From the UHGV virus genome UHGV-0165227: a stretch of DNA of 34,611 bases. One strand, given 5' to 3'. The notes beneath the pieces are model-generated. The model ran no database searches, was not told the origin of the DNA, and saw only the letters and a list, made by a program, of their open reading frames with translations. Numbering within the stretch: position 1 is the first letter of the stretch; the number at the start of each line of letters is the position of its first letter. This DNA comes from a virus. This document shows positions 30,375 through 34,611 of this stretch, piece after piece. Both the position numbers and the translations under genes were made by a program.

Positions 30375-31082
30375 ATGGATTTGAATAAATTCGATGAGCC
30401 ATTCAGCCCTGAAGATATCGAATGGCGAATACAGCAAAGCGGTAAAACACGCGATGGCAAGGTGTGGGCTATGGTGCTGGCTTATGTCACGAACCGGGCA
30501 ATCATGAAACGCCTTGACGATGTTTGTGGCAAAGCAGGATGGCGCAATGAATACCGCGATATTCCCAACAACGGCGGCGTTGAATGCGGCATATCAATCA
30601 AGATTGATTCCGAATGGGTAACCAAATGGGATGCTGCTGAAAACACGCAGGTAGAAGCCGTCAAAGGTGGTCGTTCCGGTGCAATGAAGCGCGCTGCTGT
30701 TCAGTGGGGAATCGGTCGGTATCTGTATAACCTTGAGGAAGGTTTCGCACAAACATCTCTCGATAAAAAGCAGGGATGGCACAGGGCAAAACTCAAGGAT
30801 GGAACAGGATTTTACTGGCTCCCTCCATCGCTGCCGGGATGGGCAATCCCAGCATCAGATAACAAACCATCACCAGAAAATACCAACCAGAAATCTCCAT
30901 CGGTTGACTGCGAGCAAATCCTGAAAGACTTCAGCGATTATGCGTCAACAGAAACTGACAAGAAAAAACTCATCGAGCGTTATCAGCGTGACTGGCAATT
31001 AATGGCTGGCAACGAGGAGGCGCAGGCTAAATGCGTTCAGGTAATGAACATCAGAGTTAACGAACTAAAACAGGCGGCATAA
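30375..31082 (+). CDS. Rad52-family single-strand annealing protein
   Basis: GGRSGAMKRAAVQWGIGRYLYNL and upstream GW...EY pattern resemble Rad52 N-terminal domain; GAGGTGA RBS; adjacent to ssb. Confidence 0.55.
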   Translation: MDLNKFDEPFSPEDIEWRIQQSGKTRDGKVWAMVLAYVTNRAIMKRLDDVCGKAGWRNEYRDIPNNGGVECGISIKIDSEWVTKWDAAENTQVEAVKGGRSGAMKRAAVQWGIGRYLYNLEEGFAQTSLDKKQGWHRAKLKDGTGFYWLPPSLPGWAIPASDNKPSPENTNQKSPSVDCEQILKDFSDYASTETDKKKLIERYQRDWQLMAGNEEAQAKCVQVMNIRVNELKQAA

Positions 31083-31544
31083 ATGGCAAGCAGAGGCGTA
31101 AATAAGGTGATTATCCTTGGTCGGGTAGGACAAGACCCGGAAGTTCGATACTCACCATCAGGTACAGCGTTCGCTAACCTGACAATAGCCACGTCAGAAC
31201 AATGGCGAGATAAAAATACTGGCGAGCAAAAGGAATTGACTGAATGGCATCGTGTTGCTGTATCCGGGAAACTGGCTGAGGTCGTGGGGCAGTATGTGAA
31301 AAAAGGTGATCAGATTTATTTCGAGGGAATGCTGAGAACCAGAAAGTGGAAAGACCAGTCAGGGCAAGACCGTTACACAACCGAGGTTCATGTCGGAATT
31401 AATGGCGTGATGCAAATGCTTGGCGGCATTGGCGACAGCAAACAACAAGCAGCCAGCAGGCAATCACAGAAGCCACAGCAGCAATCATCACCAGCACAAC
31501 ACAACGAACATCCTATGAACTTCGACGATGAGATCCCATTTTAA
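31083..31544 (+). CDS. ssb: Single-stranded DNA-binding protein
   Basis: OB-fold N-terminus [23 protein letters not shown], Gln-rich linker, acidic tail DDEIPF. Confidence 0.9.
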
Positions 31545-31559
31545 TCATTGGGAGAAAAT

Positions 31560-32027
31560 ATGATCACTTGCAAAAAATGTGGAGAGAATAAACCACCTAA
31601 TGGTTTTTATCCTAGAAATAAGGTGTGCAAGGAATGCACTAAAAAACGAGTAACTGAATATCAAAAAGGAATAGGAAAGCTAATACATAATAATGCTTGT
31701 AAAAAATATAACAAAAGCGAAAAGGGCAAGGTTGCATTAATCAAAGCAAGAGAGAACTATCTGGAATCTCATCGCCAAAGACAGCAAGCAAGATGGTCAG
31801 TCAAACGAGCAATTAAATCTGGTAAGTTATGTAGACCAACAACGTGTCAGAAATGCAACAGCAAATGCCACCCAGACGCTCACCACTGCGATTACAGTAA
31901 ACCTCTTGAAGTGATGTGGCTATGCAAAGCATGTCATGTTGAATGGCACAAGCACAACAAGCCAATATATCCAGACGAGGAACCAGTAACTCTCCCCTTC
32001 CCTCGTCACGCTATTCACGCAATTTAA
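31560..32027 (+). CDS. HNH endonuclease (Cys-rich, zinc-binding)
   Basis: C-terminal HHCDY...LCKACHVEWHKHN HNH motif with paired CxxC; GGGAGA RBS before ATG 31560. Confidence 0.7.
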   Translation: MITCKKCGENKPPNGFYPRNKVCKECTKKRVTEYQKGIGKLIHNNACKKYNKSEKGKVALIKARENYLESHRQRQQARWSVKRAIKSGKLCRPTTCQKCNSKCHPDAHHCDYSKPLEVMWLCKACHVEWHKHNKPIYPDEEPVTLPFPRHAIHAI

Positions 32028-32040
32028 TCAGGAGAAAATC

Positions 32041-32337
32041 ATGCCAGCGCCTCTGTATGGTGCGGATGACGCGCGCCGCTGTTCCGGCAATTCCGTATCG
32101 GAGGTGCTGGATAAATTCAGGAAAAACTACGACCGGATAATGTCGCTACCGCAGGAAACGAAAGAGGAAAAGGAATTTCGCCATTGTATATGGCTTGCAG
32201 AGAAAGAAGAACGCGAGCGAATTTACCAGACATCAATCCGACCATTCCGCAAAGCCACATATACCCACTTCCCTGAATATATCGACCCGCGCCTGCGTAA
32301 TTACCGCTCACGTTATGGCGCTATCAGTAATGACTGA
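32041..32337 (+). CDS. Hypothetical phage protein
   Basis: AGGAG RBS; 98 aa. Confidence 0.45.
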
Positions 32338-32347
32338 GGAATTTACC

Positions 32348-32515
32348 ATGAGAGGACTTGCATACAATCCCGGCATTCTTCCGGCAGAAATGATTATTCG
32401 CCAACGCGTAAAGCCAATGCCATCGAGAGAGGAATTGCTTAAGAGAAATTCTTTTCCTTCAGTGAATCAAAACAAATATCTGAATGAGATGTGGCGCAAA
32501 GGAGGCAACCAGTGA
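32348..32515 (+). CDS. Small hypothetical protein
   Basis: GAGGA RBS 7 nt before ATG 32348; 55 aa. Confidence 0.3.
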
Positions 32516-32832
32516 GCAAGATTGACTATCAGGCACTGCGTGAGGCGGCAGAGAAAGCAACTAAAGGAAGCTACATCGTAGGGCATACATCTGTTAACCA
32601 GCACGGCAATTTAACAGGAGTTTTTGTTTGTCAAAAATGGAAAGGAGAACCCGGTGGCGTGATTGCAGAATGTCATGTTAACTGCCTGGTTAAAACAGAT
32701 GTTCAGGCTTATGCAAACGCTGAATTTATTGCTGCCTTTAATCCAAATGTTGCGCTGGCACTACTGGATGAACGGGAAAGAAACCAGCAATTTAAGCGAA
32801 TTAACGTGGTGCAGCCACAATCAGCACCATGA
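32512..32832 (+). CDS. Hypothetical protein, possibly Ead/Ea22-like C-terminal domain
   Basis: GTG start overlapping previous stop (GTGA) with GGAGG RBS; motif [19 protein letters not shown]. Confidence 0.35.
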
Positions 32833-32985
32833 TGACACGCTATATGTTCGAGCTGACCTTGTGAATGGCAACTCTCCGGTAACTCCGGATGGTTCGGATG
32901 ATGGTTAACCATTTTTGATGTAAAAACATCCTTCTCTGAGGGCTTGCTCCTCAATAAGTTTGGTTTTATAATTATGCGCAATGAA

Positions 32986-33039
32986 GGTGGGCGGTTCGCT
33001 ACTATACAAGAGGGGTGTACCCCGCGAACTTAACCCACC
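32986..33039 (+). other. Predicted nested stem-loop immediately upstream of the NYN-domain gene
   Basis: GGTGGG (32986-32991) pairs with CCCACC (33034-33039); GTTCGC (32994-32999) with GCGAAC (33024-33029); inner GGGG-TGTA-CCCC hairpin (33012-33023). Confidence 0.35.
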
Positions 33040-33057
33040 ACCCCTTTCCTCCCTACT

Positions 33058-33705
33058 ATGAATTGCAAATCAATGACCAGAAAATATGCCATCATGATCG
33101 ATGCTGGTTTTTTGCGTGCAAAATTAGGCACAAAAGATAAGCCAATCGATGCGGAAGTAATCAAAGTATTTGTAGAAAAACTAACAAAAAGGCCTGAACT
33201 AGAAGGCATGATTTTGCACCGTGTTTATTATTACGATGCAGAGCCGCTTACCGGAATACAGACGCATCCGATTAGTGGAGAGAAAATTGACTTCTCTGAA
33301 ACAGAAGTTTCTAAAAGAAATAAAGCCATGCTTGATGAGTTGAAAAGAACTCCTTTTTTTGCAGTAAGACTTGGAGAGACAAACTTTCGAGGATGGAAGG
33401 TTGACCCATGGGCATTAAAGAGCAGTGACTCTAAAACTTCTTCCATTAATGCCTACAATGTTAAGCCTAATGTTCAGCAGAAAGGCGTTGATATGCGTAT
33501 TGCGTTAGATATGTCATCAATGTCATTAAAAAAACAGGCAGATATATATGCTTTGGTGACTGGTGATTCAGATTTTGTTCCAATTATAAAATTTGCCAGG
33601 AAAGAAGGCCGACAGATTTTTCTATACACACTGGGACATAGTGTCAAGCAGACGATGTATGAACATTCCGATTTGTTAGTGCCAGATACCATGGATAAAT
33701 TGTGA
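33058..33705 (+). CDS. NYN-domain (PIN-like) predicted ribonuclease
   Basis: NYN signatures: N-terminal YAIMIDAGFL strand and GVDMRIALDM...VTGDSDFVPII; start uncertain (33058 or 33073), no clear SD. Confidence 0.6.
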   Translation: MNCKSMTRKYAIMIDAGFLRAKLGTKDKPIDAEVIKVFVEKLTKRPELEGMILHRVYYYDAEPLTGIQTHPISGEKIDFSETEVSKRNKAMLDELKRTPFFAVRLGETNFRGWKVDPWALKSSDSKTSSINAYNVKPNVQQKGVDMRIALDMSSMSLKKQADIYALVTGDSDFVPIIKFARKEGRQIFLYTLGHSVKQTMYEHSDLLVPDTMDKL

Positions 33706-33807
33706 TTGGAGCTAGGAATAGGTTAGCCGCGCCTTAATAGATGATCCATTCTGGCAGAAAAAGAACACAAAGAAGTAGCCTAAGTGCCCCCAACAGCATT
33801 TACACCC

Positions 33808-33940
33808 AGGCCCTCATTGCGGGCCTTTCTATTTACAGAGATGGCTGAGCAGAACGCCAAGAACTGACAACCTGAACGAATACGAACCCGCCTAGTGCGG
33901 GTTTTCTTTTATCTGAACTCGCTACTGCGAGTTTTGTTTT
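33808..33940 (+). terminator. Three consecutive intrinsic-terminator-like hairpins (33808-33834, 33885-33910, 33916-33940)
   Basis: Each is a 6-7 bp GC-rich stem followed by a T-tract; second and third are tandem near-repeats. Confidence 0.5.
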
Positions 33941-33952
33941 ATGGAGATGATT

Positions 33953-34252
33953 ATGGTCTGTTCAACATTCAACCCTCTAACGTTACAGAAATACCAGCCA
34001 GACCCTGAAGATTTATGCTCACTGTGTGGCGGAAATCATGGCAAAGCCGCCATGATCGAATGTAAGGACAAAATCCACATATGCCTTAATTGCGTTGATG
34101 TCCTCGTTGATATCAAAAATGAGAGAGAAGATAAAAAGCGTAGCGAGGCTGTTCGCGCCTTAGATTCATGGATGCGAGATGGGTATAGTGCCGCGCAAAT
34201 TTATGACTTAGCAATATCAAAAGGCGAAATACCAGGAGTGCGTATCGAATAA
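33953..34252 (+). CDS. Cys-rich (zinc-ribbon-like) hypothetical protein
   Basis: GGAG RBS 7 nt before ATG 33953; CSLCGG...ICLNC paired-Cys motifs. Confidence 0.4.
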   Translation: MVCSTFNPLTLQKYQPDPEDLCSLCGGNHGKAAMIECKDKIHICLNCVDVLVDIKNEREDKKRSEAVRALDSWMRDGYSAAQIYDLAISKGEIPGVRIE

Positions 34253-34360
34253 GACGTAACCAACATTCGAATTGAAGAACTGAAAGAACACCAAGCCGCC
34301 TGATGGCGGTTTTTTATTGCCTGATTTGCAGGTTCGATTCCCTATTCGGAGATAGCACTC

Positions 34361-34561
34361 ATGCAACACGAACTACAACCTGATTCACTGGTTGATTTGA
34401 AATTCATCATGGCCGATACTGGCTTCGGTAAAACCTTCATCTATGACCGGATTAAGTCCGGCGACCTGCCAAAAGCCAAAGTTATCCACGGACGCGCAAG
34501 ATGGTTATATCGTGACCATTGTGAATTCAAAAATAAGCTCTTAAGCCGCGCCAATGGGTAA
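34361..34561 (+). CDS. xis: AlpA/Xis-family excisionase-like DNA-binding protein
   Basis: Winged-helix AlpA pattern IMADTGFGKTFIYDRIKSGDLPKAKVIHGRARWL; at prophage edge where int would follow. Confidence 0.65.
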   Translation: MQHELQPDSLVDLKFIMADTGFGKTFIYDRIKSGDLPKAKVIHGRARWLYRDHCEFKNKLLSRANG

Positions 34562-34611
34562 AATAGCGGGTAAAATATTTCTAACATCTAAAAAACACCA
34601 TTCCAATCAAT

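Follow-up and report, generated by a model that had tools for sequence, protein, structure and literature searches.

We describe here a 1.1 kb mobile cassette in the virus genome UHGV-0165227 (34,611 nt, read on one strand from 5' to 3', hereafter the window), in which the gene for a predicted NYN-domain ribonuclease (RNase) is preceded by a conserved RNA hairpin. The comparative analyses below strongly support the view that this gene has a promoter of its own and that its structured leader is functional. As far as our searches show, the leader is a previously undescribed proteobacterial counterpart of the orphan Rfam RNA TEG147, and a TEG147-type RNA is tied here to a specific protein partner for the first time. 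The elements of the locus are as follows.

32944–32972, + strand: sigma70-like promoter read from the sequence, with -35 TTGCTC (32944–32949), a 17-nt spacer and -10 TATAAT (32967–32972)
32986–33039, + strand: conserved leader RNA hairpin of 54 nt with three stems, from the fold and covariance model R1
32986–32991 with 33034–33039, + strand: stem P1
32993–32999 with 33024–33030, + strand: stem P2
33000–33011, + strand: one-sided 12-nt bulge, UACUAUACAAGA
33012–33023, + strand: P3 hairpin
33040–33072, + strand: pyrimidine-rich, G-poor linker between hairpin and start, without a Shine-Dalgarno (SD) sequence (anti-SD duplex +0.4 kcal/mol)
33073–33705, + strand: NYN-domain (PIN-like) predicted ribonuclease of 210 aa (PF01936, phrog_5783, AlphaFold2 model)

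The initial annotation of this DNA had placed a nested stem-loop at 32986–33039, and this segment indeed folds as drawn: in isolation it reaches -26.4 kcal/mol (z = -3.6) and none of 200 shuffled sequences was as stable. Folded in a wider context the leader is unremarkable, with z = -1.6 in 101 nt and -0.57 in 278 nt. Because z is only -1.6 in the 101-nt context, it is conservation rather than energy that provides the real evidence for the hairpin. The window leader scores 72.7 bits (E = 5e-17) with covariance model R1. It has no U-tract after P1, and its tail reads ACCCCUUUCCUC. Neither the bulge sequence nor the hairpin motif occurs a second time in the window. The cassette was also searched for repeats, and no tandem repeats, no direct repeats upstream of the open reading frame (ORF) and no flanking direct repeats were found, which argues against a ToxI-like array and against a transposon-type origin. 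An Rfam search of the window at E <= 10 gave nothing at the leader, and chance matches elsewhere (STnc130, Trp leader, isrK, STnc420).

Conservation of the leader was analysed at 80 loci encoding NYN relatives of 43–53% identity, from Gamma- and Betaproteobacteria and one metagenome-assembled genome of Binatia. Searching with the window's upstream region (nhmmer) matched ten of the 80 loci at the same relative position, and the resulting alignment revealed a common hairpin with compensatory substitutions. With a covariance model trained on 11 sequences, the motif was recovered from the sense strand immediately 5' of the NYN ORF at 41 of the 80 loci (E < 1e-3), and with a re-trained model (R2) at 55 or more of them. 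Across the 41 sequences of this first variant (variant 1), 97.3% of alignment cells pair, 14 of 16 pairs carry double (compensatory) changes and 126 cells are compensatory against 40 ± 6 in shuffles; fitting these sequences to the model biases the alignment towards the structure, and variants 2 and 3 were tested on plain MAFFT alignments. When the pairing partners were slid out of register, pairing dropped to 29–62% in variant 1 and to 26–62% over all three variants. Most of the remaining proteobacterial loci carry variant 2, which lies at the same place and has the same architecture with a different bulge (ACAUAUAA); here 96.5% of cells pair, 11 of 17 pairs are compensatory and one pair extends P3 across a bulged A. 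G-U pairs are frequent and are tolerated on the sense strand only, and minus-strand scores are far weaker (15–23 versus 80–93 bits); both features indicate a sense-strand RNA.

The proteobacterial leaders share a common plan. The hairpin is preceded by an A-rich 5' tail and contains a conserved, one-sided, A/U-rich bulge of 10–12 nt; P3 is variable, often with a UUCG loop and at times with insertions, and the tail that follows is pyrimidine-rich and G-poor. A U-tract directly after P1, which makes the hairpin terminator-like, was found in 20 of 26 variant-2 leaders versus 10 of 52 variant-1 leaders. The unpaired core is kept within each variant and differs between them, being UACAAUCCAAGA in variant 1, ACAUAUAA in variant 2 and an AGUA/GAA loop in variant 3, the Firmicutes form described below. 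By inspection, neither pairing of the bulge with the start-codon region nor pairing of the A-rich 5' tract with the tail was consistent across loci. Searching 16 proteobacterial loci at the Rfam gathering thresholds returned nothing at the motif. The bulge region (32997–33013; variant-1 consensus GCUACAAUCCAAGAG) appears to resemble a conserved stretch of E. coli 16S rRNA, GUGCUACAAUGG...AUACAAAGAG; the resemblance is not common to variant 2 and may be due to chance.

No conserved partner gene accompanies the leader and the NYN gene, as judged by all-against-all BLAST of the flanking ORFs from 56 loci. Pfam assignments for 110 flanking proteins were heterogeneous and mostly housekeeping, with a few transposase, conjugation and AAA_15/AAA_21 matches. 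As no neighbour is conserved, the conserved unit is the promoter, the RNA and the NYN gene. The folding and covariance analysis of the leader suggested in the initial annotation finds a hairpin with compensatory changes in front of homologues down to about 43% identity. Loss of the leader among homologues, which would have spoken against the annotation, was not seen, and a related leader also precedes Firmicutes phage homologues of 30–35% identity. On this comparative evidence, the leader is a conserved structured RNA and not a chance fold.

The promoter reported in the same annotation (TTGCTC, 17 nt, TATAAT) is present at its given place, with a predicted transcription start near 32979, a few nucleotides before the hairpin. 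It was not listed by a generic promoter scanner because its -35 element matches the consensus at only three of six positions. In the alignment with relatives from Serratia (TTGCGC/TATAGT) and Morganella (TTGAAG/TATAGT) both hexamers are kept and the spacer has diverged. Promoter-like sites (at least 8 of 12 matching positions) occur at the same relative place in 57% of 82 loci, compared with 7.7% of ORF-internal control windows, and across these loci the -10 element mostly ends 12–20 nt before P1. The conserved promoter-like hexamers and the three terminator-like hairpins would provide the cassette with its own promoter and terminator.

The coding start required revision. The longest ORF (33058..33705) begins at ATG 33058 and corresponds to the 215-aa protein originally proposed, but both the family alignment and the alignment with Serratia and Morganella place the conserved start at ATG 33073 (MTRKY..., 210 aa), and ATG 33058 is not conserved; PGAP calls the start of the NYN gene at 33073 or 33094. 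The distance of 18 nt given earlier between the hairpin and the ATG therefore holds for 33058, and becomes 33 nt for the conserved start. The reported absence of a visible SD sequence holds for each of the three possible start codons: their duplexes with the anti-SD range from +0.2 to +3.0 kcal/mol, compared with a median of -6.6 kcal/mol for 51 annotated neighbouring genes in related loci. A weak or absent SD is a property of the proteobacterial family as a whole (median -2.2 kcal/mol, 17% at or below -5, close to random 20-mers). In the proteobacterial leaders the start codon lies 5–50 nt (median 21) past P1, usually without an SD, so that a factor bound to the hairpin would cover the initiation region.

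The NYN domain assigned to the protein in the initial annotation was confirmed by Pfam (PF01936, 45.2 bits versus a cut-off of 24.2), with only residues 130–191 aligning, and phrog_5783 matches over the full length (E = 6e-53). Four aspartates, D15, D145, D170 and D172 in the numbering of the 215-aa form, are invariant in 37 sequences and are kept in the homologues from Firmicutes and from phage ev099. They lie in strand 1 (IDAGF), a GVD motif and a GDSD motif, and are the acidic residues expected of NYN/PIN nucleases. An AlphaFold2 model made with the family alignment (pLDDT 91.3) has a PIN-like alpha/beta fold, and the top Foldseek matches in the PDB were 2qip (E = 7.6e-7) and the NYN domain of MARF1, 5yaa (E = 7e-5); a sequence search of the PDB with the NYN protein gave no match. 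With these LabA-like/MARF1-type proteins, and with a CRISPR-associated bacterial NYN protein that was shown experimentally to be a Mn-dependent, sequence-nonspecific endonuclease of single-stranded RNA (PMC11346440), the window protein shares the catalytic fold and acidic residues. It is only 12–14% identical to the solved structures, however, and differs in its stand-alone 210-aa form, its own RNA leader and an insert of ~75 residues (60–135) that is absent from minimal NYN domains. Residues R104, G106, F110, R111, G112 and W113 of this insert are invariant, and the conserved R..G..FRGW stretch could bind RNA. PADLOC and NCBIfam gave only weak, partial NYN matches, and the protein is therefore not filed under a known defence system. 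The gene product is thus predicted, from the sequence and the model, to be a metal-dependent ribonuclease with its catalytic aspartates intact.

More distant NYN homologues (29–35% identity) were found in phage ev099, Streptococcus phage Javan85 and Dorea phage DO134P1. In the lambdoid phage ev099 the gene lies next to cI, in the position of rexAB, and in Javan85 it lies between the repressor and the integrase. At least 498 NYN relatives are present in IMG/VR contigs, and their upstream regions carry a third leader variant. In variant 3 a promoter is followed by a P1 of 8 bp, an internal loop (AGUA...GAA), a short P2, a P3 of CCCC/GGGG capped by an A..AUA loop, and then a U-tract and a strong SD; 94% of cells pair and all 14 of 14 pairs show compensatory changes. 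The U-tract was seen by inspection, uncounted, in most aligned variant-3 leaders. This variant is the Rfam family RF03535 (TEG147), with scores of 80.9, 61.3 and 58.3 bits at three loci versus a gathering threshold of 56.1, and of 30–81 bits among the Firmicutes leaders overall. The top-scoring locus encodes a staphylococcal NYN protein. TEG147 thus lies directly 5' of same-clade NYN genes in prophages and islands of Firmicutes, an association that comes from the present analysis and is outside the Rfam definition.

Teg147 has been described as a 60-nt 'bona fide' small RNA of S. aureus HG003 (PMC5826253) and is said to be expressed from a genomic island (PMC3053349), and the TEG147 internal loop has been scored as sarcin-ricin by JAR3D (PMC13085918). 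In the literature we found no statement on the function of TEG147 or on a tie to NYN genes, and a search on NYN proteins together with structured RNA, riboswitches, type III toxin-antitoxin (TA) systems or anti-phage activity returned nothing on an NYN/leader pairing. The window leader resembles TEG147 as a short promoter-proximal hairpin directly 5' of same-clade NYN genes on mobile DNA, with covarying stems, conserved unpaired nucleotides and a G-run beside an A/U-rich exposed segment. It differs from TEG147 in its one-sided bulge and variable terminal loop, in place of the AGUA/GAA internal loop and the conserved A..AUA hairpin loop, and it lacks both the U-tract and the SD. Region 32000–34611 of the window gave no TEG147 match even at E <= 10, nor did the leader reach the gathering threshold.

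In ev099 (L089:3007-3864) and in Stx2a-converting phages, an NYN paralogue of 29% identity with a long basic C-terminal tail lies just downstream of cI. Its leader is a hairpin followed by U7, with the AUG 9 nt later and no SD, and is not matched by the proteobacterial leader model.

The window belongs to the early-left arm of a lambdoid/P22-like prophage, which has genes for N, a Rad52/Erf-type recombinase, SSB, an anti-RecBCD protein, Ead/Ea22 fragments and a TorI-type excisionase; the last of these bears out the previous placement of the NYN gene in the early-left region near xis. The E. coli DETEC-E601 chromosome is 100% identical to the window over the compared stretch 31001–34611. The extent of the cassette and the features around the NYN gene are given below.

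32867–33951, no strand assigned: mobile cassette (moron) of promoter, leader, NYN gene and 3' terminators, with edges set by homology to other prophages
33808–33826, + strand: first terminator-like hairpin (pattern scan), 3' of the NYN gene and within the common cassette
33884–33934, + strand: two tandem terminator-like hairpins (33884–33904 and 33915–33934; pattern scan), arising from a 30-nt duplication
34361–34561: TorI-type excisionase, near the NYN gene in the early-left region

The cassette edges were set by comparing the window with two E. coli prophages that have different flanking genes, one of which carries a dATP/dGTP pyrophosphohydrolase-domain gene on the left and a different excisionase and integrase on the right. 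The common sequence begins at 32866/32867, within the final 42 nt of the upstream gene, and ends at 33951 (in locus L002). Because it runs from 32867 to 33951, the cassette comprises an upstream region of its own and the ORF, together with 246 nt of 3' sequence that includes the three terminator-like hairpins. The cassette is rare in E. coli, with identical or near-identical DNA (32900–33950) in 7 of 5426 complete genomes, and its DNA had no match in any record of the phage collection in a DNA-level search. The exact 210-aa protein is present on 185 contigs, and its 90% cluster spans E. coli, Klebsiella, Enterobacter and Citrobacter. Homologues in Serratia (88% identity) and Morganella (66% identity) have the same upstream region in another slot, between the tail-assembly chaperone and tape-measure genes of siphovirus-like prophages. 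The slot of the cassette varies between prophages: early-left in E. coli, tail chaperone/tape measure in the Serratia and Morganella prophages, beside cI in ev099, and repressor/integrase in Javan85.

Sharp edges and neighbouring genes that differ between E. coli prophages make this a discrete presence/absence insertion, that is, a moron by definition. Well-known lysogenic-conversion morons of lambdoid phages are rexAB, sieB and bor. The cassette resembles phage morons in its predicted own promoter, single ORF and terminator, in its presence or absence between related prophages and in its use of accessory slots, and differs from them in having a structured leader that is widely conserved and accompanies the gene from one phylum to another. 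We conclude that 32867–33951 is a self-contained, horizontally mobile module.

Several observations were made at and around the cassette boundaries. On the left, 32491–32908 is a mosaic junction that joins a truncated Ead/Ea22 gene, annotated by PGAP as a pseudogene in the identical genome, to the final ~110 nt of a gene of the DUF551/EaA type; the left edge at 32867 falls in this gene tail, and the dATP/dGTP pyrophosphohydrolase-domain gene of another prophage has the same tail. On the right, the 3' end of the cassette (33838–33950, with the 30-nt tandem duplication at 33884–33942) is 88–91% identical to sequence that adjoins theta-like genes (DNA polymerase III) of other prophages, in some 86 further E. 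coli genomes, and may have served repeatedly as a recombination joint. A 103-aa Cys-rich ORF (33941–34252, + strand; phrog_3680), situated between the cassette and the excisionase gene, weakly matches ClpX over the zinc-binding region at the ClpX N-terminus (E = 0.002–0.003). Elsewhere, a cluster of five tRNA genes (L062:6898-7477) lies about 2.9 kb downstream of one NYN cassette and an ALIL pseudoknot, an IS3-family frameshift element (L070:820-936), upstream of another; these hint at mobile-element neighbourhoods.

The RNA motif was also found without an intact NYN gene. An exact 15-mer scan of viral contigs gave 88 matches, of which 80 loci were fetched and tested with the model; two were real, and the others failed the covariance-model test and were taken as chance. 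The orphan variant-1 motif (65.6 bits) was found at L167:4268-4347 and also at L100:609-688 and L225:4268-4347, with a variant context in L226/L188. In this GC-rich, uncultivated phage lineage the motif follows the stop codon of a helix-turn-helix gene and comes with a strong terminator of its own; gpW-like and portal genes come next, and NYN is absent. The orphan's P2 carries one compensatory double change relative to the nearest linked copies. Such an orphan might be a decoy RNA or a cassette remnant. Variant-2 pattern matches in viral contigs were all followed by NYN (8 of 8). The metagenomes gave 17 true motif matches representing 13 distinct sequences, with an intact NYN N-terminus in six, a truncated or internally deleted gene in three and an orphan motif in four. 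Decay of the gene behind an intact leader was likewise seen in E. coli WP4-S18-ESBL-08 (L003), one of the seven E. coli copies, where 148 bp are deleted (equivalent to window 33492–33639), and in L203, L207/L217 and L210, where the NYN gene is truncated or has lost 148 bp or more. Only motifs with an intact core could be picked up by the pattern scan, and the orphans closely resemble linked copies, so this asymmetry of kept RNA and lost gene is suggestive only.

To account for these findings we propose, with middling confidence, a two-part module of RNA and RNase in which recognition of the leader by the NYN protein keeps production of that protein in check. The transcript from the sigma70 promoter would start a few nucleotides before the ~55-nt hairpin, and this hairpin would be the cognate RNA of the NYN protein. 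The RNase would bind, and possibly cut, the exposed bulge of its own leader, and binding would lower NYN synthesis either by blocking the nearby start codon without an SD or by triggering decay; in relatives with a U-tract, stabilisation of the terminator-like hairpin may be an alternative route. A potentially harmful RNase would in this way be held low and buffered in the lysogen. Recognition of its own leader is favoured because the hairpin is the sole conserved partner of the gene, and it fits because only one protein is conserved at the locus, an RNase from a family whose members cleave single-stranded RNA. The variant-specific unpaired cores fit a co-evolving RNA-protein interface better than a fixed small-molecule pocket, and the U-tract after P1 in many relatives points to an attenuator or short-RNA design.

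A likeness can be drawn to RNases that regulate themselves, such as E. coli RNase III through the rnc leader, RNase E through the rne 5' untranslated region (UTR) and the mammalian NYN/PIN-like Regnase-1, which acts on a stem-loop of its own mRNA. In common with these, the window gene has a conserved stem-loop in its own untranslated region as a possible feedback target. Those enzymes are, however, housekeeping or immune-regulatory proteins with many substrates, whereas the window NYN gene is an accessory moron gene and its interaction with the leader is presumed.

Several points weigh against own-leader recognition. A host factor, the ribosome, RNA polymerase or a ligand, rather than the NYN protein, could read the hairpin. 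The window leader lacks a U-tract, and attenuation is therefore not the mechanism in the window. Gene and 5' UTR are co-inherited, and strict linkage alone is no proof of interaction. A purely cis-acting operator does not predict the orphan motifs unless they are recent remnants, and the missing SD could simply reflect weak expression. The protein as reader of the hairpin, the direction of regulation and a toxic or anti-phage role are presented here as inference; the roles proposed in the initial annotation (toxin, abortive-infection effector or mRNA turnover in lysogeny) may each apply. In favour of these roles are the lack of a conserved protein partner, the moron or lysogeny-module slots in prophages, and decayed copies in which the RNA persists and the nuclease is lost; the weak PADLOC matches speak against a known defence role.

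An alternative that we consider rather unlikely is a type-III-like toxin-antitoxin or abortive-infection system, in which the hairpin RNA, made in excess through a leaky terminator, would act in trans as an antitoxin that inhibits an NYN toxin, and the RNase would be released when a phage infection stops transcription or leads to turnover of the RNA. As in ToxIN, CptIN and TenpIN, a structured RNA lies immediately upstream of an endoribonuclease gene under one promoter, with a terminator-like element between RNA and gene in the window's relatives, and the locus is small, mobile and of a kind often borne on phages and plasmids. The order of promoter, structured RNA, U-tract and RNase gene in variants 2 and 3 mirrors ToxIN in particular, TEG147 builds up as a distinct RNA of 60 nt, and the NYN gene, found in moron and lysogeny-module slots of prophages, resembles TA loci in being solitary and scattered. 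Decay is asymmetric as well: every NYN gene has the RNA, yet the RNA outlasts the gene in the metagenomes and in L003, and in one phage lineage an orphan motif is equipped with a terminator, as would be expected of a decoy. On the other hand, the RNA is a single hairpin and not a tandem repeat array, and Pfam, PADLOC and the fold search give only NYN, PADLOC weakly and partially, a NYN/PIN-like fold unrelated to the ToxN/AbiQ type and to ToxN, CptN and TenpN. The window variant, having no U-tract, would produce RNA and protein 1:1, and the orphans, picked by a scan for intact motifs, differ very little from linked copies and may have been left behind recently. A wider form of the same idea, in which TEG147 and the two proteobacterial variants would make up a new and widespread RNA-protein class of TA or abortive-infection systems, with a single RNA restraining the NYN RNase and phage orphans serving as decoys, is in our view equally doubtful.

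We consider it distinctly unlikely that the hairpin is a riboswitch-like element or host-factor attenuator, which would sense a small molecule or bind a host or phage protein and switch the NYN gene on under a particular condition. Conserved unpaired nucleotides framed by covarying helices would suit such a device, as would the fusion of hairpin and U-tract in many relatives. The sarcin-ricin module, as which the TEG147 internal loop was scored, is moreover a common protein-docking element. The unpaired core, however, is not conserved across variants 1–3, unlike the usual riboswitch cores, and the RNA folds into just one hairpin, bulged on one side. The loci show no association with metabolic genes, and no conserved alternative antiterminator helix was noticed in a non-exhaustive inspection of the upstream sequences.

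A passive role, in which the hairpin would have no specific partner and would serve as a 5' stabiliser, as a terminator insulating the gene from phage pL read-through, or as both, appears very improbable. It would agree with the position of the hairpin at the extreme 5' end of the transcript, with a cassette inside a long phage operon and with the A-rich sequence before and U-rich sequence after the hairpin in many loci, which resemble a bidirectional terminator; generic stabilisers and terminators, however, do not keep a 10–12-nt bulge sequence across bacterial orders within covarying stems, and many variant-1 leaders, including that of the window, have no U-tract. That the inverted repeat is instead a DNA-level recombination or transposition site mobilising the cassette is scarcely credible, since for all the mobility and sharp edges of the cassette the repeat is single-copy and internal, between promoter and start codon, has no flanking direct repeats or associated recombinase, and shows the sense-strand bias in G-U pairs and model scores described above.

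Recognition of the leader by the NYN protein, if confirmed, would provide both a function and a protein partner for the orphan Rfam family TEG147, to which the present analysis adds two proteobacterial RNA motifs that are new and strongly supported by covariation. It would also establish a compact module of RNA and RNase in the accessory slots of Gram-negative and Gram-positive prophages alike. Such a module could account for a group of prophage morons so far without explanation in E. coli, Klebsiella, Enterobacter, Citrobacter, Serratia and staphylococci.

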